Source: Dehalococcoidia bacterium (lineage in GTDB: Bacteria > Chloroflexota > Dehalococcoidia > Lucifugimonadales > UBA3495). From it: DNA of 26,292 nt. Shown in pieces: positions 1 through 26,290 of the stretch. The stretch is taken from positions 1 through 26,292 of the forward strand of contig JASLXV010000103.1 of assembly GCA_030740155.1 (NCBI GenBank), given 5' to 3'. A program made the position numbers and the translations under genes. The notes beneath the pieces are model-generated. The model did not search any database. It saw only the letters and a program-made list of their open reading frames with translations, and was not told the DNA's origin. Within the stretch, counting starts at the first letter, position 1; the number at the start of each line of letters is the position of its first letter.

Positions 1-31
1 CATTGGCCTTAATGTTTTCTGACTGGGACAC
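1..31 (-). CDS. 5' end of a gene running off the left edge (MSQSENIKAN...), product unknown
   Basis: Minus strand reads AAAGGAG, 5 nt, GTG at 31, open to the window edge. Only 10 codons visible. Confidence 0.4.
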   Translation of the reverse strand, partial: MSQSENIKAN

Positions 32-277
32 ATTTGCTCCTTTCTGGAAGTAATGTACCTTCATTCCAGGAGCTCACGCCACTTCCACTTTCTCGGGTTT
101 TCTTACACCCCAATGTGTCCCATTATCGCTGACGGTCTACATGTGTGGCTACGGCGCAAGGTGTCCCCATTTAGGGACAGCACATCCTTGAGGCGCGGCA
201 CCGGAATTCCAGCCATCCTGGTTCTGTCTCCGGTGTCCCGATTGGTTTCGGTAAGGGAGTTGGTTCAGTCGTGATAA

Positions 278-306
278 TTGACACCCGGCGCAGCTCCTAG
301 TAGGCT
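278..306 (+). promoter_or_regulatory. Sigma70-type promoter for the first methyltransferase
   Basis: TTGACA (278-283), 17 nt spacer, TAGGCT (301-306); GGAGG RBS at 334-338. Confidence 0.6.
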
Positions 307-344
307 CCATGCGCTATTATGCTGTTTAGAAATGGAGGTGTGTC

Positions 345-992
345 TTGACCCTGCCTGGCCGTGAAGACAGAGTGCAATGGGTCCTTTCCTCTGGGACCAA
401 AGAGGAGGTGGCTGAAAAATACGACACCTGGGCTACAGAATATGATGCCGATTTACAATCCTACGGCTATCGTTCCCCCGCGATAGTCGCCGGAATCGTG
501 GGCCGCTATGTACCGAGCGACATCTCGCCGATTTTGGACGCTGGCGCTGGCACGGGCATCATGGGTGAAGTGCTCAATACCTTGAGGTACAATGGCATCA
601 CCGCGTTGGACCTTTCCGAGGGAATGCTGGAGGTCGCCGCCAGCAAGGGAGTGTATGCGGACACTCGCCAAATGGCGCTCGGAGAGGTCTTGGATTTTCC
701 AACGGACTACTTCGCGGCAGTCGTGTGCATTGGGACGTTCGCCGCCGGGCACGCACCACCAAGTGCATTTGACGAACTCGTTCGCATAACGCGCCCAGGT
801 GGACACATCATCTTCACGGTACGGAACGACATGTACCAGCAAGGTGGCTTCAAGGAGAAACAACAGGAACTCCTTCAAGCAAACGCATGGCAACTGGTGG
901 AAGTGGTCGGTCCTTACGTCTCCGTACCCGGAAGCGATGACCCGGAAGGGACCAATCAGGTGTTCGCCTACCGGGTTCTAAGTCAAAGTTGA
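345..992 (+). CDS. Class I SAM-dependent methyltransferase
   Basis: Motif I ILDAGAGTG, LDLSEGML, ELVRITRPGG; N-terminal YDTWATEYD; TTG start with GGAGG RBS. Confidence 0.9.
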   Translation: MTLPGREDRVQWVLSSGTKEEVAEKYDTWATEYDADLQSYGYRSPAIVAGIVGRYVPSDISPILDAGAGTGIMGEVLNTLRYNGITALDLSEGMLEVAASKGVYADTRQMALGEVLDFPTDYFAAVVCIGTFAAGHAPPSAFDELVRITRPGGHIIFTVRNDMYQQGGFKEKQQELLQANAWQLVEVVGPYVSVPGSDDPEGTNQVFAYRVLSQS

Positions 993-1241
993 CCCAGTAC
1001 CTGGGTTCCCGCACCGTTGGGCGCGGCCTTCAATCTCTGACAGCCTGCAACCATGTCTCACGCCCAGCGTCGCCCCATGGGCACTATATTTGGTATCAGG
1101 CAATAGAACCCACCTGCTGATATTGAGCCTCTTCAGAACAGATCAGCCCCATTATCGGCTCATGGAATGAGATAAGGGCGGATACCCGACGCCTCTGCAT
1201 TATCCATCGACTCCATCCACAATCATTTACCTTCCAGAAAT

Positions 1242-1270
1242 TTGACGGTACTCCGCTACGCTGCTAGACT
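1242..1270 (+). promoter_or_regulatory. Sigma70-type promoter with extended -10, about 360 nt upstream of panD
   Basis: TTGACG (1242-1247), 17 nt spacer, TAGACT (1265-1270) preceded by TGC. Confidence 0.6.
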
Positions 1271-1635
1271 CCCGCGGTGTTCATTGACAGACCATGCTTC
1301 CGGACCCAAGAACGTCCGCGGAGTTGGTGGTCACGATATCTACTTATCTCAGGTGAGAACATGATATTGAGATCCAGGAGCAATCTACAGGAAGAGCCGA
1401 AGGCTGCGACGGTCCATAACCTTTTGCGCCGCTGCTGCCGTCCTCTTTCCAACCTCTTCCCCGGGTACACCAATCGTACCCCCTGCGCCCTTCCCTCCAA
1501 CCCATAGCGCCACCCACAACCTCCACACCCACGCAACCTAACCCCCTTGCTATTCCGGACCTTGATGTCCATAGGGCTAGTGGTGCCTTTTTTTGCTTTG
1601 CAGGCACCCAATACGTTTACCAATGGAGAGTAATT

Positions 1636-2007
1636 ATGAGAGATGTGTTGAGATCCAAGATTCATCGCGCCCACGTGACCGATGCCAATCCCGACTATGT
1701 GGGCAGTATTCTTATCGACGAACAGCTGATGGATATGGTCGGTCTGTGGAACTTCGAAAAGGTTCTGGTATGCGACATCACCAATGCCAACCGGTTTGAG
1801 ACCTATGCCATTGCCGGTGAGAGAGGTTCCGGCGTCATCGCGGTCCAGGGCGCAGCAGCCCACCTGAGCAAGAAGGGTAACTGCGTAATCATCATGGCAT
1901 TCGAGGCGACCGACACGCCCATTGATCCCAAGATGATCTTAGTCGACGAAAACAACCGGTTCGTTGAGTACCTGGAGGCAGCCAAGCAGCCTCAGAAGGT
2001 CCACTGA
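1636..2007 (+). CDS. panD: Aspartate 1-decarboxylase family (pyruvoyl-dependent)
   Basis: SKIHRA N-terminus, YVG/SI self-cleavage site (Gly23-Ser24), RFETY, GAAAH; GGAG RBS. Confidence 0.92.
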   Translation: MRDVLRSKIHRAHVTDANPDYVGSILIDEQLMDMVGLWNFEKVLVCDITNANRFETYAIAGERGSGVIAVQGAAAHLSKKGNCVIIMAFEATDTPIDPKMILVDENNRFVEYLEAAKQPQKVH

Positions 2008-2148
2008 CCGTCCAAATACCTTGCGGGCCAAATCAATCGAGGGGTCGAAGTCACTAGGCACACCGTTGGCGGCAGGGTCGATTGCACGACGAATATAGCT
2101 AACGGGCCACGCGCCGACAGTTTTTGGCATATTTGGAGGATAGCTAAC

Positions 2149-2967
2149 ATGACCATCAAGTTCACTGAGAAGGAAACCGAAACCTACTACGACAACGAAG
2201 ACGCAATATACCGAGCGTTCTGGGACCGGGAAGGTAGCGTTCACTGGGGGGTATTCGACCAAAGCACGGGCAGAGACTTCTTGAAGGCCTGTGCCAACCT
2301 GAACAAAGTTATGGTCCGGCGGGGAAAGATCAATCGGGACGCGAAAGTTCTTGACCTGGGCTGCGGCAACGGCACCACCGCCATCTGGCTGTCTGAATCA
2401 GAAGGCTGCCGCGTGACCGGCGTGGACCTGAGCAGCGTTCGCATCGGCAACGCCAATAATGCCCGCTCGAACCGGTCCCCCGAGCTTCAAAGCCGCCTGG
2501 TTTTCGAGAAAGCCTCAGCCACTGAACTCCCTTTCCCGGACGGTACTTTTACCCACGTGTGGAGCCAGGCGGTGATCTATCACGTTCATGACAAGGACGC
2601 CGCCCTCCGCGAGGCTTACCGGGTGTTGAAAGACGGTGGGATCATGGTTTTCGATGACATGATCAAACCCAAGAGTGACATCTCTCCGGATGCCCAAAAA
2701 TATGTATACGACCGGTTGTTGTTCGACACAGATTTCAGCTTTGAGTCGTACCAGGTGTCCCTCAAGGCCCAAGGTTTCAAGATATTGGAAGCCCATGATT
2801 TCTCGGAGCATTTGAAGACCAGCTATCTGTGTCTGTCCGAACGCACGCCCGTGGGTGAGGGTGAACACTATCAGCATTTCCGGGATTTGAGCGCTGCTTA
2901 CGTTCAGACGGCCAAAGCCGTGGACAACAATGAATTGGGCTGGGGCTTCTTCGTCTGCCAGAAGTGA
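2149..2967 (+). CDS. SAM-dependent methyltransferase, resembling sarcosine/dimethylglycine N-MT and tocopherol/sterol MT types
   Basis: YYD...FW...SVHWG N-terminal segment, VLDLGCGNG, GVDLS, LPFPDGTF, YRVLKDGG; GGAGG RBS. Confidence 0.88.
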   Translation: MTIKFTEKETETYYDNEDAIYRAFWDREGSVHWGVFDQSTGRDFLKACANLNKVMVRRGKINRDAKVLDLGCGNGTTAIWLSESEGCRVTGVDLSSVRIGNANNARSNRSPELQSRLVFEKASATELPFPDGTFTHVWSQAVIYHVHDKDAALREAYRVLKDGGIMVFDDMIKPKSDISPDAQKYVYDRLLFDTDFSFESYQVSLKAQGFKILEAHDFSEHLKTSYLCLSERTPVGEGEHYQHFRDLSAAYVQTAKAVDNNELGWGFFVCQK

Positions 2968-3055
2968 ACTCCCACGGCGTTGAATACGGCAATCAAGTCA
3001 CCACGGCCTGAAGCGCCGGATAGGCCTAGAGGCGTATAAGCAGGAACGGTTTAGA

Positions 3056-3688
3056 ATGCAGGAAAGCGAAAACAGGGTCCAATGGGTGTACGCAGCCACC
3101 AACAACCAGGAACTGCAGGAGCGCTACGACCAGTGGGCCACAGAGTATGATAGAGACCTGGAAGAGGACTTCGCCTGGAATGCGCCCCTGGCTGCGGCCC
3201 GAGTGTTTTCCAAGTTGGTTCCCAGCGACGCCAAGGTCTTGGACGCCGGCGCCGGGACCGGGCTGGCGGGCGTGGCCCTTTCCCATCTAGGGTATCGCAA
3301 CCTGGTGGCCATGGACCTGTCTTCGGGCATGCTAGAGGAGGCCCGCCGGAAGCAAGTCTACACCGAGTTCCAACAGATGGTGCTGGGTGAACGGCTGGGG
3401 TTCGAAAGCGATCACTTCGACGGAGTTATCTGCGTCGGAGTGTTCACCCTGGGCCATGCCCCTGCCAGCGCCTTTGACGAATTGGTGCGTATCACCAAGC
3501 CAGGTGGGTTCGTGGTGTTTTCCCTCAGGACCGACATCTACGCGGAGGGCGGGTTCAAAGAGAAGCAGGAAGAGCTGGAGTCGGCGGGCAGGTGGTCTCT
3601 ACGAGAGGCAACGGAGCCATTCCAGCCTCTGCCCAAAGGAGAGCCCGAAGTGTACCACCAGATCTGGGCTTACGAGGTGTTCCCGTAG
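3056..3688 (+). CDS. Class I SAM-dependent methyltransferase, paralog of 345..992
   Basis: VLDAGAGTG, MDLSSGML, GHAPASAFDELVRITKPGG; collinear with 345..992. Confidence 0.9.
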   Translation: MQESENRVQWVYAATNNQELQERYDQWATEYDRDLEEDFAWNAPLAAARVFSKLVPSDAKVLDAGAGTGLAGVALSHLGYRNLVAMDLSSGMLEEARRKQVYTEFQQMVLGERLGFESDHFDGVICVGVFTLGHAPASAFDELVRITKPGGFVVFSLRTDIYAEGGFKEKQEELESAGRWSLREATEPFQPLPKGEPEVYHQIWAYEVFP

Positions 3689-4146
3689 GTAGGCCGTCAG
3701 CGATGAGGGGAAAACTTTCAGGGTAAGACAACCCGAGAGAGGCGGGTGGCGGGAACTATCGAAGTTAGGCTTTAGCGGAATCGGAGAAGAGCAGACGCGG
3801 GCCCGGCCGCGCCCCAACTGAGGGCCACCAGGAGCGCCCATCCGTGTTCACGGGCGAGTTCGACTCTGCTCCGTCTCCCCGTCTGATTGGTTCGTTTGAT
3901 ACTCGGCCGCCGTCGTCACTTGATTGAGGAAAGCCATGTTTCGACCGACAGTACGCGAATGCCCGATGATAGAATTGATGTAGGTGGCGATTGCTCAACC
4001 CAGGGTGAACGGATGATCGTAACGTCGATACTCGATGCTGGGTACCAGGTCAGAGCGGCCGCCTTCGAATTGGTTGGGATTTTCAAGATTCAGATTCGGC
4101 CCGGAAGGGCATCAACCGGCGCAAGTAAAGGAGCTACATAGGTCTT

Positions 4147-5337
4147 ATGGCGGAAAACAAGATCATCCTGGCCTACAGCGGGGGGTTGGATACCTCGGTG
4201 GCAGTCCCCTGGCTAAAGGAAAAGTACGACGCGGATATCATCACCTTGACCATCGACCTGGGCATGGTGGACCTGGAGGCGATACGTCAGCGGGCCCTGA
4301 CCGTCGGGGCGGCCAAAGCGCTGACGGTGGACGGCAAAGAGACCCTGGTGAACGAGTTCCTGTTTCCCGCCCTCCAGGCCGGCGCCATCTACGAAGGCCA
4401 GTACCCTCTGGCGACCGCCCTGGGACGGCCTCTCATCGCCCGGTATCTGGTCGAGGCTGCCCAGGCCGAGGACGCTTACGCCGTGGCCCACGGCTGTACC
4501 GGCAAGGGGAACGACCAGGTGCGGCTGGATGTCGGCGTGGGCGCCCTGGCCCCGGAGCTGAAGGTCATAGCGCCTACCCGGGACTGGAGCATGAGCCGCG
4601 AGGATGAGTTGGAGTACGCCCGAGCCCGGAGTCTCCCCGTCAGCCCCGGCAACAGCAAGTTTTCCGTGGATGAAAACCTGTGGGGCCGCAGCGCCGAGGC
4701 CGGAGAGCTGGAAGACCCCTGGGCGGAGCCGCCCGAAGAGGCCTACGCCTGGACGAGCGCGGTGGCCTCCGCTCCCGACCAGGCGGCCTACCTGGTGGTC
4801 CACTTCGAGCACGGGATTCCCACCGCCATCGATGGCGAGAACATGGCCGGAGTCGACCTCATCCGCCACCTGAACACGGTGGCCGGCAACCACGGGGTGG
4901 GCCGCATCGACGCGGTCGAGAACCGGCTGGTGGGGATCAAGTCGCGGGAGATATACGAGGCGCCGGCGGCGACGGTGCTGCATGCCGCCCACCGGGCCCT
5001 GGAAGCCATGACTTTGAGCAAGGAGCAGGCCCGGACCAAGGACCGCATCGCCCAGGAGTACGCCGACGTGGTGTACAATGGCCTGTGGTTCACCCACCAT
5101 CGCCAAGACCTGGATGCCTACGTCCGCAGCACCCAGCGCGAGGTGACCGGCGACGTCCGGCTGCGGCTGCACAAAGGCACCTGCACCGTGGCGGGGCGCA
5201 GTGCCCCCCGCTCTCTCTACCAGTACCGTTTGGCTACCTACGACCGGGAGGATCAGTACGACCACCAGGCCGCGGAAGGGTTCATTTCGATCTACGGGTT
5301 GCCGTCACGGACCCAGAGCCAGGCCCAGCCCGACTAG
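4147..5337 (+). CDS. argG: Argininosuccinate synthase
   Basis: LAYSGGLDTS, AHGCTGKGNDQVR, SVDENLWGRS, ENRLVGIKSREIYEAP. Confidence 0.98.
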   Translation: MAENKIILAYSGGLDTSVAVPWLKEKYDADIITLTIDLGMVDLEAIRQRALTVGAAKALTVDGKETLVNEFLFPALQAGAIYEGQYPLATALGRPLIARYLVEAAQAEDAYAVAHGCTGKGNDQVRLDVGVGALAPELKVIAPTRDWSMSREDELEYARARSLPVSPGNSKFSVDENLWGRSAEAGELEDPWAEPPEEAYAWTSAVASAPDQAAYLVVHFEHGIPTAIDGENMAGVDLIRHLNTVAGNHGVGRIDAVENRLVGIKSREIYEAPAATVLHAAHRALEAMTLSKEQARTKDRIAQEYADVVYNGLWFTHHRQDLDAYVRSTQREVTGDVRLRLHKGTCTVAGRSAPRSLYQYRLATYDREDQYDHQAAEGFISIYGLPSRTQSQAQPD

Positions 5338-5349
5338 GGGCGGGACCAC

Positions 5350-5802
5350 GTGTGGTGGGTGAGAGACTCCGGGACTGAGGACCTGTCGGCCATTGAAGAT
5401 CTGGTGGCCCTGGTCGATGGCGACGGGGAAGATTTACAGGCAAGCCAGTTCGTTGTCGCAGAGGATGAAGGCGGCGGCATCCTGGGATGCGCCCGCTTGA
5501 GGCCTTACCAAGGCTTCCTCGAGTTGGCCAGCGTGGCCGTCCGTGATGGGCTTCGGACCAGGGGCGTGGGCCGGGAGATGGTGATCAGGCCGCTGGGGCG
5601 GTATCACGGCCCCCTCTACCTGGTTTGCGAGGACCGGGAGGTGGGGTTTTTTCGCCGGTTCGGCTTCGGATTGATTGAGCCCCAGGAAGTGCCGCCCAGC
5701 CTGGCGCCCAAGTGGCGGCGCTACACGGCCCGGGTTGGCCGGATCAACGTCATGCGCCGCAACGCTTCAGAAAGACCGAACGCCGGGGCCCCGGCGTCTT
5801 GA
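5350..5802 (+). CDS. GNAT N-acetyltransferase (short ArgA-like amino-acid acetyltransferase type)
   Basis: ILGCARL, ELASVAV, RTRGVG acetyl-CoA motif, FFRRFGF; 12 nt after argG. Confidence 0.75.
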   Translation: MWWVRDSGTEDLSAIEDLVALVDGDGEDLQASQFVVAEDEGGGILGCARLRPYQGFLELASVAVRDGLRTRGVGREMVIRPLGRYHGPLYLVCEDREVGFFRRFGFGLIEPQEVPPSLAPKWRRYTARVGRINVMRRNASERPNAGAPAS

Positions 5803-5962
5803 GCCGGTCTCCATCGCGGGTCGCGCCGGCGCCGTGGTTCCGTCCTGTAAAGGCCCACCCTCTTCATCCATCAACCGGGAGAGAGGGTGATTCGCAAGAC
5901 ATTTCCCGAAGTGTGGCATTTCGGAAGCAACGACATTCTTTGAGCGGTGACATGGAGGAAGT

Positions 5963-7132
5963 ATGAAGCTCACCAGCAAGATTTTGAACCTGGGCACCGA
6001 GGCCGCCTTCGAGGTGCTGGCCAAGGCGCGGGCGCTGGAGGCCCAGGGCAAAGATATCATCCACCTGGAGATCGGTGAGCCCGACTTCGATACGCCCAGC
6101 CATATCGTCGAGGCGGGAGTCAAAGCCCTCAGAGACGGCTACACCCACTACGGCCCCACGGCCGGGCTGATGGAAATGCGCGAGGCCATCGCCCGCAACA
6201 GCCGGGAAGTCCGGGGCATCGACACGGTCCCGGCCCAGGTGGTGGTCACGCCGGGGGCCAAGCCCGTCATGTTCTACGCCATCTTGGCCCTGGCTGAACC
6301 GGGAGTGGAGGTGATCTACCCCAACCCCGGCTTTCCCATATACGAGTCCTTGATCCGGTTTGCCGGCGCCACCCCGGTGCCGATGCGCCTGCTCGAAGAG
6401 AAGAGCTATCACCCCGATCTGGACGACCTCGCATCCTTGATCACCGACCGCACCCGGCTCATCATCATCAACTCCCCGGAGAACCCCTGCGGCTCCATTC
6501 TGACCCTGCCGGAACTGGAAACCATCGCCGATCTGGTCAGACAGCATGACGACCTTTACATACTTACCGACGAGGTCTACAAGGATATTTTGTACACCGG
6601 CGAGCACCACAGCATTGCGGCCCTTCCGGGCATGGCGGAGCGTACCATAATCCTTGACGGGTTTTCCAAGAGCTATGCCATGACCGGCTGGCGCCTGGGC
6701 TACGGAATCATGCCTGAAGAGATAGTCCCGAACGTGACCAGGCTGGCGGTCAACAACATCTCCTGTCCCGCCACCTTCACTCAGATCGCGGGCATCGCCG
6801 CCCTGGACGGCCCTCAAGACGCGGTGCAGGCCATGGCCGCCGAGTTTGCCGGGCGCCGCCGGCTCATCACCGACGGGTTGCGCAGCATCCCGGGCATCCG
6901 GTGCCCCGAGCCCGAAGGAGCTTTCTACGCTTTCCCCAACATCTCGGAAACGGGCCTCACCAGCCGCCAGTTCGAGGATAGGGTGATGCAGGAGGCCGGG
7001 GTCGCCTTGCTGTCGGGGAGCGGCTTCGGCGAGTTCGGTGAGGGGTACGTCCGTATCTCCTATGCCAACTCCCGGGAAAACATCCAGAAGGCGCTGGACC
7101 GGCTGGACACCTTCGTGCGCGGCTTGGTGTAG
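5963..7132 (+). CDS. PLP-dependent aminotransferase class I/II (aspartate aminotransferase type)
   Basis: IGEPDF, NSPENPCG, DEVY, GFSKSYAMTGWRLG (PLP lysine); GGAGG RBS. Confidence 0.95.
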   Translation: MKLTSKILNLGTEAAFEVLAKARALEAQGKDIIHLEIGEPDFDTPSHIVEAGVKALRDGYTHYGPTAGLMEMREAIARNSREVRGIDTVPAQVVVTPGAKPVMFYAILALAEPGVEVIYPNPGFPIYESLIRFAGATPVPMRLLEEKSYHPDLDDLASLITDRTRLIIINSPENPCGSILTLPELETIADLVRQHDDLYILTDEVYKDILYTGEHHSIAALPGMAERTIILDGFSKSYAMTGWRLGYGIMPEEIVPNVTRLAVNNISCPATFTQIAGIAALDGPQDAVQAMAAEFAGRRRLITDGLRSIPGIRCPEPEGAFYAFPNISETGLTSRQFEDRVMQEAGVALLSGSGFGEFGEGYVRISYANSRENIQKALDRLDTFVRGLV

Positions 7133-20025: not shown

Positions 20026-20913
20026 TTGTCAGCACGATCCGACCTGAAAAATAGGCTAATTTCCGGACAACCCATCGTAGCGCCGGGGGCCTACGACCCC
20101 ATATCGGCCCGGCTGATCCAGTCGTTGGGCTTCGACACTGTCTATACCGGGGGATACATGAGCGGCGCCCATCTGGCCGTCACCGAGCCGCTGATGACCC
20201 TGACCGAGCAGGTGGACGTAGCCGCCCGGGTGGCCCGGTCGGTTTCCTTGCCGGTGATCTGCGACGCCAACGCTGGGTATGGCGACCCGGTGCACGCCAT
20301 GCACACTGTCCGGACCTTTGAGGCCGCGGGCATTGCCGCCATCCACATAGAGGACCAGTTCTTTCCGAAGCGGGCCTCATACCACGCGGGTTTGGAGCAT
20401 GTCATCCCCGGCGACGAGTTCCTGGTAAAGATGAAGTACGCGCTGCAAGCCCGCACCGACCCGGACTTCATCATCATCGGCCGCACCGACGCCTTCTCCG
20501 CAGTGGAAGGGGACATGAACGAAGCCATCCGCCGGGGCAACGCCCTTCGCGACCTGGGTGTCGACGTGATAATGCCCCGGGGCGTGCGCCAGAAGGAAGA
20601 CCTGGATACCTACCGCAAAGGCGTATCCGATGTTCCCTTGCTGGTCATCGCCGGGGCCGACGATATCACGGTCCAAGAGTACACGGACCTGGGCTACCAG
20701 ATAATGATCTACGCCACCGCGCCCATAATCGCCGCGGTCGACGGTTTCCGCAAGGTTTACCAGAGCCTGAAGGACACCGGCCACATCGGCATCAACGAGC
20801 AGCGGGTGCGGGAGATGCGCGACGAGGTTGAGGCCCTGATCAGCCTCCCCGAGTACCAGGAGGTTGAGGCGCAGACCACCGAGCGGGAATTCCAGGACCG
20901 GCCCCGCCACTGA
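20026..20913 (+). CDS. Isocitrate lyase/PEP mutase superfamily protein (KRASY loop variant)
   Basis: PGAYDPISA, ICDANAGYG, IHIEDQFFPKR, IIGRTDA; TTG start after GGAGG. Confidence 0.9.
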   Translation: MSARSDLKNRLISGQPIVAPGAYDPISARLIQSLGFDTVYTGGYMSGAHLAVTEPLMTLTEQVDVAARVARSVSLPVICDANAGYGDPVHAMHTVRTFEAAGIAAIHIEDQFFPKRASYHAGLEHVIPGDEFLVKMKYALQARTDPDFIIIGRTDAFSAVEGDMNEAIRRGNALRDLGVDVIMPRGVRQKEDLDTYRKGVSDVPLLVIAGADDITVQEYTDLGYQIMIYATAPIIAAVDGFRKVYQSLKDTGHIGINEQRVREMRDEVEALISLPEYQEVEAQTTEREFQDRPRH

Positions 20914-21002
20914 CAAAAATCATCCTTGGTACGAAGTGGCCCTGCCGGGTCTCAGTACATCCGGCAGGGGCCGGCCACAAGCGTGGGGCTTTGCCTCAAA
21001 TC

Positions 21003-21113
21003 CGTCATTCCGAGGAGCGCAGGGACGACCCCGATTCTATCGGGGTGGTGCGGGGTCCCTCCATGGCAACCTTGACCCACCGCCCCAGACCCCTCGCCTC
21101 ACTCGGGGTAACA
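21003..21113. repeat. Degenerate REP-like palindrome between convergent genes, with nested CCCCGAT-TCT-ATCGGGG
   Basis: GTCATTCCGAG.AGCGCAG.GACGA at left, CCCTCGCCTCACTCGGGGTAAC at right; inner inverted repeat at 21029-21045. Confidence 0.55.
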
Positions 21114-21217
21114 TATGCCAGGGTGCTTTTGAGGCAAGGCCCAAATGTGGGGTATTGCCCGGGCCGCCCGATTCCGGAAAATCCGGGCAATGAAGCTCCA
21201 ACGGCCGGGACGCCGGG

Positions 21218-21544
21218 TCAGCGGCCCGGCGCCTGGTAGCCCACGGCCGACGCCTTCCGCATGGCTTCGACGGCCTCGTCCATCGGTAGGAGCACGGTGG
21301 TGTTGAAATTCCTCAAAGCGCCGCTGCTGGCTATTGCCATGGACATCGCCATCATGGTCACGTTGTCGGGGAGTTCCAAGATAGCCACCACGTCGTAGTC
21401 GCCGAAGGTGTAGTCGAAGGTTTCAAGCTTGCCGCCCAGACACTCGATCATCTGCCGCACCGCCGCGCTCCGGTCTTGGGGGTCCTTGATCAGGGCCCCG
21501 AGCCCCTGGCTGGAATAGCTAGCCTGTTTCATGTAGCGAGCCAT
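21218..21544 (-). CDS. GYD domain protein
   Basis: PQDR..AVRQMIE.LGGKL, YTFGDYDVVAILELPD, TTVLL; GGAGG RBS. Confidence 0.9.
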   Translation of the reverse strand: MARYMKQASYSSQGLGALIKDPQDRSAAVRQMIECLGGKLETFDYTFGDYDVVAILELPDNVTMMAMSMAIASSGALRNFNTTVLLPMDEAVEAMRKASAVGYQAPGR

Positions 21545-21547
21545 GGT

Positions 21548-22414
21548 CTACCTCCTCGTTTCGACGATCGTAGCACCGGACACGCCGTACTTCCGCTCCA
21601 GTTCGTAGACTTCCGGGAGCCCCAGCATGCCGGCGGCGTCCCAGCGGGTGGCAACCCGGCTTGGGTCCACCCTCCCTGTCTCCTTCAGCTCCTCGAAGGC
21701 GTCCCGCACCTGCTTGTAGACCAGCCAGATGGTGCTGCCGCAGATCATCAGCTTGAAACCCTGGGCGGCCACCTCCTGGGTGGGCAACAGGTCTCCGTTG
21801 TACATCCGGGGCAGGTCCCGCAGGTCGGCGGCGTAGTTGCGCAGATCATCCAACGTCTTGACACCATCGACGAACACCAGGTCGGCGCCGGCGTCGATGT
21901 AGGCGCGGCACCTCCGGACCGTATCCTCCCAACCGGTGACGGCGTAGGCGTCGCAGCGGGCGATGATGACGAAGTCGGGGTCGGTGCGAGCGTCCAGGGC
22001 GGCTCGGATCTTCTGGACCGCTTCCTCCATGGGGATGACCTGCTTGCCCTCGAAGAACCCGCACTTCTTGGGGAATACCTGGTCCTCGATGTGGATGCCG
22101 GCGACCCCGGCGGACTCGTACTCCCGAACCGTGCGCCGGACGTTCAGCGGATTCCCGTAGCCGGTATCGGCGTCGGAAACCACTGGAATGCCGACCGCGT
22201 TGGCGATGTACTTGGCGTTGGACACCATCTCAGTCATGGTCAGCAGGCCCACGTCGGGAAAGCCCTTCTCGGCGGCCGTGCCGGCGCCGGTCATGTACAC
22301 CGCGTCGAAGCCCACCGCTTCCGCGATCTTGGCATGGAACGCGTTAAGAACGAATGGGGCGGTAATCATCTGGCCCGAGGCCAGCATTTGGCGAAGCTTG
22401 GTGGTTGTCTTCAT
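21548..22414 (-). CDS. Isocitrate lyase/PEP mutase superfamily protein (methylisocitrate/dimethylmalate lyase-like)
   Basis: YMTGAG, GFPDVGL, SDADTGYGN, IHIEDQVFPKKCG, IIARCDA; GGAGG before ATG 22414. Confidence 0.92.
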   Translation of the reverse strand: MKTTTKLRQMLASGQMITAPFVLNAFHAKIAEAVGFDAVYMTGAGTAAEKGFPDVGLLTMTEMVSNAKYIANAVGIPVVSDADTGYGNPLNVRRTVREYESAGVAGIHIEDQVFPKKCGFFEGKQVIPMEEAVQKIRAALDARTDPDFVIIARCDAYAVTGWEDTVRRCRAYIDAGADLVFVDGVKTLDDLRNYAADLRDLPRMYNGDLLPTQEVAAQGFKLMICGSTIWLVYKQVRDAFEELKETGRVDPSRVATRWDAAGMLGLPEVYELERKYGVSGATIVETRR

Positions 22415-22434
22415 GGCGACCCCTCCGTGGTGCA

Positions 22435-22508
22435 AGCGGTCAGCTATCAGCCTTCAGCTTTCAGCTTTCAGGTTCGGAGGGAATTGTAGCTGCTGATAGC
22501 TGGCCGCT
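22435..22508. repeat. Heptamer-based inverted repeat
   Basis: AGCGGTCAGCTATCAGC (22435-22451) pairs with GCTGATAGCTGGCCGCT (22492-22508); TCAGCTA/TCAGCCT/TCAGCTT/TCAGCTT heptamers. Confidence 0.7.
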
Positions 22509-23088: not shown

Positions 23089-24204
23089 CTAGCCCGCCGC
23101 CTGGGAGGGCAGGGCCACGGTGGCCCGGCCGAGGGCCGTCTGCTGGCCCCGCTGGTCTTCGCACCACAGTGCCACGTCGGCCAGGCGCCGGTCTTCTTCA
23201 CGGTAGACCCGGGTCACCCGGCCCCGGCACCAGGTGGCGTCGCCATACCCATTGGGCAAGGTCAAGGTGACGCTCAGAGACTTGAGGAAGCCCGAGTCTC
23301 CCATCCAGTTTGTCAGAAGATTGCTCACCCAGGATATCCGGTCGATGCCCGAGTCATGGGCGTAGGGGAACCCGAACATGCCGGCCACGTCATCCCGCAG
23401 CATGGAAGCTTCCCAGCTTTCCCACGAGCCGTTGTCCGGGTCACGGAAGGCGAAGCCGGGGTGGCGCTGCCGGTAGCGCAGGAACTCCTTGAAGCCAAGG
23501 CTTGGGCGGGTGGCGTTGATGAATTGGATCATCTCCTCGGAGGTCAGCGGCCCCCGGACGATGGCGGGAAGCGGGTCCGACTCCTTCACGCTTTCCCAGT
23601 AGCGCGGTTGGCTGCCCCTTATCTCCTCGGCGTCATAGGCGTCCTCGATGGCCAGTGCCTCCGCCTCGGTCAGGGGCTGCTTGCGCCACTCCCGGTACTT
23701 CCCCGCGTCGATAGCCGGGGCCCGAGGGGTGCGCAGGACCCATGAGGTAGCCTTGGCCACGGCCTCGCCTTGGTCGTCGGTGAAGGCCGTTTCCCCCGTT
23801 TGGAGGACCATCGGCCCGCAGAACCGCCCCTCTTTCTCTTGAACGTCGACCAAGCGCGATTCGGACCGGACTCGGTCCCCCAAGCGCACCAATTTGAAGA
23901 ACTCCCACTGGGTGCCGCCATATATTATGTGAAGCTCAGGGAGCTTGGGGGCGATGCAGGTAGCGTCCACGCTGTACAGCCAGCACGGGGGCGCAACGAT
24001 GCGGCCCTCGCCGCCATTTCCGGGGTAAGCGGGGTCCAGCCAAAGAGGGTTGCGGTCGCCAATGCTCTTGGTCCAACGGTTGATGGCCGGACGGCTGGCC
24101 AGACAGTTGTGCAGGGGGCGGCGCAACGGCACGCCGATCAGGGCCCGCGCCGCCTCAAGTGACGCGGGATCCAGTCCTTCGGTGGGAGTACTTGGTAAAA
24201 GCAT
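23089..24204 (-). CDS. MaoC-like double hotdog dehydratase family protein
   Basis: IGDRNPLWLDP.Y, IVAPP, YGGTQWEF, RYWESV, NWMGDSGFL, GD.TWCRGRV. Confidence 0.85.
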   Translation of the reverse strand: MLLPSTPTEGLDPASLEAARALIGVPLRRPLHNCLASRPAINRWTKSIGDRNPLWLDPAYPGNGGEGRIVAPPCWLYSVDATCIAPKLPELHIIYGGTQWEFFKLVRLGDRVRSESRLVDVQEKEGRFCGPMVLQTGETAFTDDQGEAVAKATSWVLRTPRAPAIDAGKYREWRKQPLTEAEALAIEDAYDAEEIRGSQPRYWESVKESDPLPAIVRGPLTSEEMIQFINATRPSLGFKEFLRYRQRHPGFAFRDPDNGSWESWEASMLRDDVAGMFGFPYAHDSGIDRISWVSNLLTNWMGDSGFLKSLSVTLTLPNGYGDATWCRGRVTRVYREEDRRLADVALWCEDQRGQQTALGRATVALPSQAAG

Positions 24205-24211
24205 GGGAGGG

Positions 24212-25423
24212 CTACCTCTGCTCCAGGGGTGGAGGGACGATGGGTTGGTCTGCCGGGCCATGCACCGATGGCAGCGAGACCACGGCGCTCCCCGGCATGA
24301 TATTCTCGCCCCGTTGGTTCACCGCCGAAATGTCGCACTGCACCAGGTGATAGTCACCCTCCACCCATTTGCGCACGACCCGTCCCCGCAATCTGGTGAC
24401 ATCGCCGACGATGTTCGGGCGGCGCAAGAAGCCTCCGACCTGGACCAGGAAGGCGTTGTCCCCCATCCAGTCAGTCATGTAGCGGCAGAGCCAGGACAAC
24501 CGGTGAGGGCCGATGTCGTAGACGCCCGGCATCCCCACTTCCCGGGCCATGAACTCCTCCCAATGCCCCCGGTGGGGATGGTCCTGGACCCCCGTCTCCG
24601 GGTCCACAAAGGTGTCGGCGGGATGGCGGCGCCGGTTGAGGATCTGGTATACGTGGCCGCCGGGATGGCCTACTCCCTCTCCGCTGGTGGCCCCGGAATC
24701 GGTGTAGCTGCCGGCGAACGCGATATCCACCACCCTCAGGGGGCCGTAAGTTACCAGGGGCAGTTGTTCGTCGTCGGCTACCTCTTCCCAGTAGCGGGGG
24801 AGGCTGCCGCGGACCGACTCCTCCAACATCTCCTGCTCCACCGCATCCAGGTCCTCCAGAGACCACCGGTGAGGGTCGACGTGGTAGTTCATGCCCCCGG
24901 GGGCTTGGCGGCGGGGCGTCCGCATCACCTGGGTCCGGGTCTTGGCCACCAGGACGCCATCCGCGCTGCGGCAATCCACCTCGCCATGCTGAAGAATCAT
25001 CCGGGGCACCGTCCGCCCTCGCTTTTCCACGGCATCGACCAATCGGCCACTCTGAGTGATGATGTCGCCGGGACCCATCGGGTGGAAGAACTCCCACTCG
25101 GTGCCGGCGTAGATCCATTGGATGCCCCGCAGGCCCGGCGCGATTATCGCCTGGCCGACCATCACCGGAGGGGCAACGATGCCGCCCCATCGGGTCCGGG
25201 CCGCGTACTCCGGGTCCAGAAACAGCGGATTGTCGCTGCCCATGTAATTGCAGTAAGTGCGGATATTTTCCCGGGTTATCTCCACGGTGGCTTGAGCTCC
25301 CCGGTAGTCCACCCCAATCAGCCGCCTGGCCTCGGCTAGGCTGTTGTCATCCAGCCCCGGTACCTGGGTCGCGACCGTGTAGGCTTGGTCTTTGAACCTG
25401 ACCACATTTTCCGGTTCCGTCAT
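24212..25423 (-). CDS. MaoC-like double hotdog dehydratase family protein (paralog)
   Basis: MGSDNPLFLDPEYA..TRWGGIVAPP, YAGTEWEF, RYWEEV, HW...AREVGMPGVYDIG, DWMGDNAFL. Start may be GTG 25432. Confidence 0.88.
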   Translation of the reverse strand: MTEPENVVRFKDQAYTVATQVPGLDDNSLAEARRLIGVDYRGAQATVEITRENIRTYCNYMGSDNPLFLDPEYAARTRWGGIVAPPVMVGQAIIAPGLRGIQWIYAGTEWEFFHPMGPGDIITQSGRLVDAVEKRGRTVPRMILQHGEVDCRSADGVLVAKTRTQVMRTPRRQAPGGMNYHVDPHRWSLEDLDAVEQEMLEESVRGSLPRYWEEVADDEQLPLVTYGPLRVVDIAFAGSYTDSGATSGEGVGHPGGHVYQILNRRRHPADTFVDPETGVQDHPHRGHWEEFMAREVGMPGVYDIGPHRLSWLCRYMTDWMGDNAFLVQVGGFLRRPNIVGDVTRLRGRVVRKWVEGDYHLVQCDISAVNQRGENIMPGSAVVSLPSVHGPADQPIVPPPLEQR

Positions 25424-25775
25424 GTCACCCACGCAGCGTCGAGTATCGGCCTACCCAACCAGACCCGGCTGGTCTGGCGGCTATCCGGATTATATCAGAC
25501 CCCTTCTTCGCGGCACCAAGCAGCACCGGCTGCCCTGGGAAACCGCGGCTGAATTCGAGGTGGACCGGCCCGTGGATAATCCTTCCAGCTCCCCTTGCGG
25601 CCGGCGCGTTACCCGCGAGCCCAGGAAGCCTTTCTGGGCCGGGGAATGCCACGCTGCCGGATCTGGAAATGCCGCAGGACCGGGGCATTCCCGGAGCGAT
25701 GCCCGAGCCTGATTTTAGGTGAAACCGTGGTGCCTCCCACAGATGAACATGATATAATATGCGGCGCACGGCTAG

Positions 25776-25862
25776 GCCGAGGTGGTGGAATTGGTAGACA
25801 CGCGGTCTTGAGGGGGCCGTGGGCATTCGCCTGTGTGGGTTCAAATCCCGCCCTCGGCACCA
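25776..25862 (+). tRNA. tRNA-Leu (GAG)
   Basis: GCCGAGG/CCTCGGC acceptor, anticodon loop TTGAGGG, long variable arm, GGTTCAAATCC, encoded CCA; TATAAT at 25755-25760. Confidence 0.97.
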
Positions 25863-25892
25863 ACTCGGCGACATTGGTTGATAAAGAACCAC

Positions 25893-25969
25893 GGCGACGT
25901 AGCCAAGTGGACTAAGGCGGAGGTCTGCAAAACCTCTATTCGGCGGTTCGAATCCGCCCGTCGCCTCCA
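25893..25969 (+). tRNA. tRNA-Cys (GCA)
   Basis: GGCGACG/CGTCGCC acceptor, GAGGT-CTGCAAA-ACCTC anticodon arm, GGTTCGAATCC, T discriminator, CCA. Confidence 0.97.
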
Positions 25970-26204
25970 ATCAATCTCGCCACTCCGGAGCGGCACGGCT
26001 CCTCCCTCCAACGGCCGGGTCCGCCTGGCTTCGGCTCGGCGCCAGCCAGGACCGCGCCGTCCCGCACCGCTCCTCCAATCCGGCCCCGCGGCCCGAGGGC
26101 TCGGCAGCCCTCGAGCCCGCGCACGGCGGGGTTTCCACCGCAAGGGCGAAACAGTCTCCACTACCTTTCTCCTGCGCTCACTCGGGAATACCATAGGTCC
26201 ACCT

Positions 26205-26290
26205 GCCGGGGTGGCGGAACGGTAGACGCGGCGGACTTAAAATCCGCTACCTTAACGGGTGTGTGGGTTCGACTCCCACCTCCGGCACCA
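26205..26290 (+). tRNA. tRNA-Leu (TAA)
   Basis: GCCGGGG/CTCCGGC acceptor, GCGGA-CTTAAAA-TCCGC anticodon arm, long variable arm, GGTTCGACTCC, CCA. Confidence 0.97.

Follow-up and report, generated by a model that had tools for sequence, protein, structure and literature searches.

Why would panD, the gene for aspartate 1-decarboxylase, lie among genes for S-adenosylmethionine (SAM)-dependent methyltransferases instead of beside the pantothenate genes panB and panC? This question is raised by contig JASLXV010000103.1 of a Dehalococcoidia bacterium (GenBank assembly GCA_030740155.1), of which the 26,292 nucleotides analysed are here called the window. The initial annotation had read the gene order MT-A, panD, MT-B, MT-A' (MT, methyltransferase) on the plus strand, and four intact open reading frames (ORFs) are indeed present in that order, with intergenic gaps of 643, 141 and 88 bp. 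Three of these four genes, panD (panD' for the window's type), MT-B and MT-A', form a conserved unit. They may well constitute a dedicated module for the synthesis of N-methylated beta-alanine, the likeliest product being the osmolyte or piezolyte beta-alanine betaine, a reading drawn from sequence comparison to which a probability of about 0.55 is given. It is proposed because PanD' retains its Gly-Ser cleavage site and its aspartate-binding and catalytic residues, and because linkage, overlap or fusion ties the three genes together. The annotation knew of no bacterial operon of this make-up, and neither such an operon nor any bacterial beta-alanine betaine cassette is described in the literature searched, most subscription papers lying outside it.

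Linkage was surveyed in 61 genomes of the SAR202-type Dehalococcoidia lineage, comprising the genome of the window (G000) and 60 relatives. Matches to PF02261 were counted as panD, thresholds of E ≤ 1e-40 and E ≤ 1e-35 were used for MT-B and MT-A', respectively, and co-occurrence was cross-tabulated by hand. panD was found in 31 genomes, MT-B in 30, MT-A' in 41, panB in 51 and panC in 57. Both panD and MT-B are present in 28 of the 61 genomes (28 of the 31 with panD), and the two genes are in every case no more than about 1.4 kb apart, with MT-A' adjacent and one MT-A' copy broken. This linkage is far beyond chance. The three remaining panD genomes hold a partial match, a stand-alone gene encoding Asn72 and, in G055, a canonical panDBC operon; in contrast to the latter, the distribution of panD follows that of MT-B and not that of panB or panC. 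The lone panD embedded among three methyltransferases, as the annotation described it, thus stood with regard to MT-B and MT-A', and MT-A probably lies outside the conserved unit.

A second survey, a GTDB scan selected on MT-B alone, returned at least 79 loci, at least 66 of which have MT-B at 39% or more; this set is not independent of the first. Among the loci listed, panD is present in 50 of 54 Dehalococcoidia loci and MT-A' in 46 of 54. The stop codon of panD overlaps the start of MT-B in 44 of 51 loci, and in-frame read-through from panD into MT-B was found in none of the 51 genomic loci. Five database proteins that appear as PanD-MT-B fusions (P0057, P0083, P0121, P0122 and P0128) were not used as evidence; since no locus is in frame and P0128 looks frameshifted, indels within the overlap may have produced them artificially. 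The flanking genes vary, and no fourth gene is kept across the Dehalococcoidia cassette loci. A scan of viral sequences gave a single match of 19 residues, and plasmids gave none at 1e-25.

PanD' scores 119.2 bits against the TIGR00223 cut-off of 106. In the numbering of Mycobacterium tuberculosis (Mtb) PanD, it holds K9, H11, Y22, G24-S25, R54, T57, Y58, G73, A74, A75 and I86, residues to which roles in self-cleavage, in catalysis and in holding the beta-carboxylate of aspartate are assigned (PMC3314653, PMC3975893). In the numbering of the window protein, K8, H10, Y21, G23-S24, R53, T56 and Y57 show no variation across all 51 cassette loci. Asn72 (Mtb) is replaced by Gln, Q71 in the window, in 50 of these 51. 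The best 30 of 73 phylum-wide panD matches all keep Asn72, and none of those 30 has a cassette methyltransferase within 1.5 kb. Asn72 is dispensable for activation, as the N72A substitution leaves activation of Escherichia coli PanD unblocked (PMC3975893). In a tree of 54 rows, the 21 Q72 PanDs form a single clade with support of 100/93, a copy from Hyphomicrobiaceae included; the PanDs of cyanobacterial cassettes keep Asn72 and fall in two other groups. PanD-like domains are also seen at the C-terminus of P0129 and P0130, named phenylacetate-CoA ligases at source, and that of P0129 is without the Gly-Ser cleavage site.

In agreement with the annotation, no panB or panC is present among the ORFs of the window; in its genome, which is 93.7% complete, these two genes lie together on contig C67, and the window panD is the sole PF02261 match. 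Among the 30 genomes lacking panD, 27 have panC and 25 have both panB and panC; therefore, this order obtains its beta-alanine for pantothenate without PanD. No panB match was found in 6 of the 28 cassette genomes. With panB and panC encoded elsewhere in the genome, the sole panD may also supply pantothenate, and some beta-alanine may spill over to PanC, although this would not be the reason why the gene is kept. The suggestion that this PanD feeds methylation rather than pantothenate is in this way borne out as regards the conserved linkage and the decoupling from panBC; its product is inferred, and some supply of pantothenate may occur as well.

The predicted model of MT-B (predicted local distance difference test, pLDDT, 96) matches the folds of RebM/AtmM, SpnF, MitM, the Galdieria SDMT-like protein 2o57 and phosphoethanolamine methyltransferases (PMT); the fold matches of MT-B, like those of MT-A', point to no particular substrate. 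MT-B aligns with SDMT-like proteins at W25, H32, W138-S139-Q140, H145, D170, R189 and Y226, and the pocket motif W..H.G / WSQ / H / D.R is common to both. R189, which may bind the substrate carboxylate, is absent from DsyG and from actinobacterial methyltransferases, and DsyG also lacks WSQ. Identity to cyanobacterial SDMT-like proteins is 23-26%, and MT-B forms a separate clade. An MT-B-like gene is also found in Symploca and Trichodesmium (loci L066 and L079) with a KamA-like aminomutase, a second methyltransferase and radical SAM genes, and no panD; this is a different, uncharacterised cluster.

MT-A' is METTL27/WBSCR27-like by best match, with 7qcb found by sequence (E 3e-23), profile (1e-35) and fold (1e-17; template-modelling (TM) score 0.71), at 32% identity; 7qcb is the best match of MT-A as well. 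MT-A is about 50% identical to MT-A', and a gene of its family lies upstream of the cassette only in the window's own genome among 25 loci. It falls outside the 18-row group containing the cassette MT-A' proteins, lacks the C-terminal LPKGEP motif and is probably a neighbouring divergent paralogue, so the pathway of three methyltransferases that the annotation envisaged did not hold: the conserved unit has two, and MT-A is separated from panD by the longest of the gaps. The METTL27-like family has six members in G000 and one in most relatives. Copies in G000 are seen on contigs C20, C25, C50, C92 and C97 (six matches and a fragment); the C20 copy is broken into two frames, and the C97 fragment, 68% like MT-A, adjoins a PF04115 gene.

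On contig C50 (L149, G000:C50:25000-38000, 3158-7052), an operon for 2-aminoethylphosphonate (AEP), pepM-ppdA-ppdB-aepZ, is immediately followed by a paralogue of MT-A' (61%). It occupies the dnaE/hydrolase site, where the cassette is found in 16 of the 79 loci among those listed. Here, the module upstream of the METTL27-like gene seems to have been exchanged for another, and the placement of the paralogue supports a small anionic amine as substrate. A bolder proposal, which is considered doubtful, is that MT-A' is a small-molecule N-methyltransferase for omega-amino acids, with beta-alanine as substrate in the cassette and the isosteric AEP as substrate where the paralogue ends pepM-ppd-aepZ, and that the products of the BBOX-like and DsyD-like genes of cyanobacterial clusters add a hydroxyl group to the betaine and remove one carbon from it, yielding, for instance, glycine betaine. 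If true, this would provide the first substrate class for the orphan METTL27 family, for which the cassette in any case offers a substrate hypothesis, and SAR202 would be a de novo source of beta-alanine betaine in the deep ocean.

Counterparts are present in cyanobacteria. Fusions of MT-B and MT-A' of about 465 aa are common in a representative protein library, and in Calothrix, Dapis, Moorena and Ca. Paraprochloron such a fusion lies directly ahead of a panD with Asn72. These clusters usually add a PF04115 protein (DsyD-like, 30% identical to DsyD over 176 aa) and two BBOX/TmpA-like dioxygenases, and some also carry asnB, a halogenase-like gene or an EamA transporter. Characterised enzymes of the TmpA/BBOX group use trimethylammonium substrates (PMC9296572). 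In Symploca, NER48858.1 joins PanD, a GSMT-like and an MT-B-like domain in a single chain, and an MT-B-MT-A' fusion and a second panD are encoded at a distance of 1-2 kb; in L137 (10057-14668), the triple fusion, a 2Fe-2S protein, the MT-B-MT-A' fusion and the second panD follow in one run. Also, Dapis has a fusion of PanD with a GSMT-like domain, P0152 has both methyltransferases fused to a TauD domain, and a Mycobacterium MT-B-MT-A' fusion precedes a TmpA/BBOX-like gene. In red algae, a fusion of a methyltransferase with PF02261 from Porphyra is inactive in the dimethylsulfoniopropionate (DMSP) pathway (PMC11306096), and in the related Pyropia, beta-alanine betaine builds up during drying (PMC12113544), a circumstantial link to the betaine reading.

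In the proposed pathway, PanD' would cleave itself at Gly-Ser into the pyruvoyl form and, most probably, decarboxylate L-aspartate to beta-alanine. MT-A' would then add the first methyl group or groups, replacing a GSMT, the order being uncertain, and MT-B would complete the trimethylation with its SDMT-like pocket and conserved Arg189 for the carboxylate. Alternatively, MT-B may perform all three methylations. In ocean microbial communities, SAM is the source of the methyl groups of beta-alanine betaine (PMC9321204); the available part of a study on SAR202 treats only inositol and glycine betaine as osmolytes (PMC9416657). The plant enzyme is the only one for beta-alanine betaine synthesis in the literature searched, and a homoserine betaine methyltransferase, Tery_2447, has been described in Trichodesmium (PMC5864184). 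The cassette is common in widespread marine Chloroflexota and has counterparts in cultured cyanobacteria, which makes its genes directly testable and useful as a metagenome marker. It would also mean that PanD is re-used beyond vitamin B5 synthesis and that such panDs should be counted as pantothenate genes with caution.

Several observations weigh against a beta-alanine betaine module. The genomes surveyed are related and hence non-independent samples. MT-B and MT-A' occur without panD in 2 of the 61 genomes, and among the loci listed in the GTDB scan, MT-B lacks panD in 4 of 54 Dehalococcoidia and 6 of 12 non-Dehalococcoidia loci. Of the 41 genomes that have the MT-A family, 11 have neither panD nor MT-B; in G016, MT-A' is retained at the cassette site, again with neither of them. 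Within the family that carries the triple fusion, just 1 of 52 genomes was found to have it. MT-B, at 93.4 bits, fails the cut-off of 550 for NF041675 (SDMT), which the cyanobacterial SDMT-like comparison proteins also miss (344-394 bits), and its best solved relatives are natural-product O-, C- and N-methyltransferases. GSMT (NF051855) is not among the families listed for MT-A and MT-A' and gave no genome match at E ≤ 1e-10; for the orphan METTL27, its authors favour a nucleic acid as substrate (PMC9240639). The Q72 residue could mean an altered substrate of PanD'. Independent recruitment of PanD is hinted at by the tree and was not upheld in the approximately unbiased (AU) test on 27 of its rows, in which a single origin was not rejected (p-AU 0.64 and 0.52).

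Four other explanations have been weighed. The same logic may serve another anion, with the Q72 PanD acting on phosphonoalanine, cysteate or cysteine sulfinate, the methyltransferases on AEP or taurine, or both, to give trimethyl-AEP or taurine betaine. Cysteate is an inhibitor of canonical PanD. This is regarded as unlikely, even with the C50 paralogue ending an AEP operon of the window's own genome at the dnaE/hydrolase site, ppd genes upstream of panD in G004, an AEP operon and the cassette about 1.7 kb apart in G029, cyanobacterial dioxygenases that match TmpA and DfmD too, and Q72 restricted to the cassette clade: pepM is present in 8 of 61 genomes and in just 4 of the 30 with MT-B, AEP genes are found in 2 of 79 cassette-region loci among those listed, and the cyanobacterial cassette PanDs retain Asn72. 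It is quite unlikely that PanD' and MT-B make methylated beta-alanine for a different end product, be it a form with only one or two methyl groups, one whose carboxyl group is methylated by MT-A', or a building block for further ligation or hydroxylation. An ATP-grasp gene does lie close to the cassette in 4 of the 79 loci among those listed and in L147, the cyanobacterial clusters carry asnB, the PF04115 protein, two BBOX-like genes and a halogenase-like gene, and MT-A' is not GSMT-like; no fourth gene is conserved across the Dehalococcoidia loci, and a three-gene end product is therefore likelier there.

That PanD' is the housekeeping source of beta-alanine for pantothenate, and that the methyltransferases are co-inherited and act on unrelated substrates such as nucleic acid or lipid for MT-A', appears distinctly improbable. 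It would fit with this panD being the only one in a genome having panB and panC, with MT-A' often being found alone and with the nucleic acid favoured for METTL27, and it is opposed by panBC in 25 of 30 panD-less relatives, by a gene overlap conserved despite differing flanks and by the PanD-methyltransferase fusions of cyanobacteria. A DMSP pathway, with MT-B as a DsyG-like S-methyltransferase and PanD' as an isoform decarboxylating 4-dimethylsulfonio-2-hydroxybutyrate (DMSHB), is very improbable indeed, despite the DsyD homologue in the cyanobacterial clusters. A pyruvoyl enzyme requires a primary amine, which DMSHB does not have. Between MT-B and the DsyG domain of NES17792.1 (P0298), which is a validated one, identity is 25% (63/257), below the 38-50% used in PMC11306096, R189 is absent from DsyG, and none of the four window genes matches PF04115. 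The fusion of a DsyG-like domain and PF02261 in Porphyra umbilicalis was deemed a good candidate by the authors of that paper, and it is without MSM and DDC activity in their Table 1 (PMC11306096). DsyD is not a PanD-family domain and belongs to PF04115; a search for longer PF04115 fusions, weak by design, found none.

The proposed beta-alanine betaine cassette appears to have been inserted in the genome of the window. Its features are listed below.

Features of the window and cyanobacterial counterpart loci
Feature	Position	Strand	Description
MT-A	345-992	+	215 aa, TTG start; METTL27/WBSCR27-like class I methyltransferase, divergent paralogue; PF08241
panD (panD')	1636-2007	+	123 aa; pyruvoyl-dependent aspartate 1-decarboxylase, Q72 subclade; PF02261, TIGR00223
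MT-B	2149-2967	+	272 aa; class I methyltransferase, SDMT/PMT/RebM-like fold; PF08241
MT-A'	3056-3688	+	210 aa; METTL27/WBSCR27-like methyltransferase; PF08241
Cassette-bearing low-GC island, inserted ahead of argG	1-3860		Based on GC, GC at third codon positions (GC3) and same-genus comparison
End of multicopy element (putatively insertion sequence-like), contig edge	1-141		Copies on many contigs of the same genome
Cyanobacterial MT-B-MT-A'/panD cluster loci	L047-L050, L139, L238-L240		Filamentous marine cyanobacteria

The GC content of the island is about 0.55 against 0.63-0.66 downstream, and GC3 of its genes is 0.63-0.76 against 0.81-0.87 in three downstream genes. In G001, a 90% complete genome of the same genus, similarity to the window begins only at 3861, CoA-transferase-like ORFs stand ahead of argG, and neither panD nor MT-B has a match. 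The terminal element has very high depth in public sequencing runs; repeats with copies on other contigs border the island at 1-141 and at about 3700-4050. The public runs containing this DNA are of marine origin, and those close homologues of MT-B that bear an organism name belong to SAR202/Dehalococcoidia. Shine-Dalgarno-like GGAG(G) precedes MT-A, panD and MT-B, and AGGA precedes MT-A'. At 1980-2148, the tail of PanD resembles the one that relatives encode within the MT-B overlap, and the 141-bp spacer between panD and MT-B suggests a later insertion. Rfam gave zero matches at E ≤ 1 in 1-4200, and therefore no riboswitch was found. The scans for promoters and for terminators gave hits at or below the level expected from shuffling (2 against 1.7 and 1 against 3.9) and therefore provide no evidence. 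RNA-library contigs from three runs are scattered pieces that include intergenic DNA, showing neither expression nor co-transcription.

An ATP-grasp gene recurs beside MT-B or the cassette in L056 (2214-3218), L147 (7318-8385), L031, L057 and L076, and in the Hyphomicrobiaceae locus, a family-20 glycosyltransferase gene (otsA-like) lies downstream of it. Further along the window, at 20026-22435 and 23089-25432, two convergent genes like those of the isocitrate lyase/phosphoenolpyruvate (PEP) mutase family and a tandem pair of MaoC-like dehydratase genes were noted by eye only, and tRNA-Leu(GAG), tRNA-Cys(GCA) and tRNA-Leu(TAA) are present at 25776-26290.

Among known systems, pantothenate PanD (TIGR00223; 2c45, 1ppy) shares its catalytic and substrate residues with PanD', which differs in Asn72Gln, a shorter C-terminal part, its distinct clade and its linkage to methyltransferases instead of panBC. 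MT-A and MT-A' have METTL27/WBSCR27 (7qcb) as their best sequence, profile and structure match and, unlike mammalian METTL27, this family sits here in small-molecule operons. In DsyGD/DsyG, a type-11 methyltransferase is likewise joined to a decarboxylase, the latter being of PF04115 and not PanD, and in OSX77567.1 of P. umbilicalis a methyltransferase is joined to a PanD domain (PMC11306096). The trimethyl-AEP pathways (TmpA, DfmD; PMC9296572) handle a trimethylammonium-ethyl anion isosteric with beta-alanine betaine, and related dioxygenases adjoin the cyanobacterial cassette; in contrast to the cassette, they need pepM/ppd, with the scarcity among MT-B genomes given above. Glycine betaine synthesis by GSMT and SDMT (NF051855, NF041675), as in ApGSMT/ApDMT of Aphanothece (PMC9699165), likewise uses two SAM methyltransferases in tandem or fused. 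MT-B resembles SDMT in fold and pocket residues, R189 included, whereas the window cassette is coupled to a decarboxylase, MT-B stands in its own clade and its partner is METTL27-like, not a GSMT. The beta-alanine N-methyltransferase (BANMT) of the plant Limonium (PMC6657504, PMC9699165) shares the proposed product and chemistry. It presumably belongs to the O-methyltransferase-like family PF00891, to which none of the four window genes has a match. BANMT is a single trifunctional enzyme, and plants are without a confirmed panD (PMC6657504). The cassette resembles GSMT/SDMT in logic and BANMT in product, and is a member of neither.

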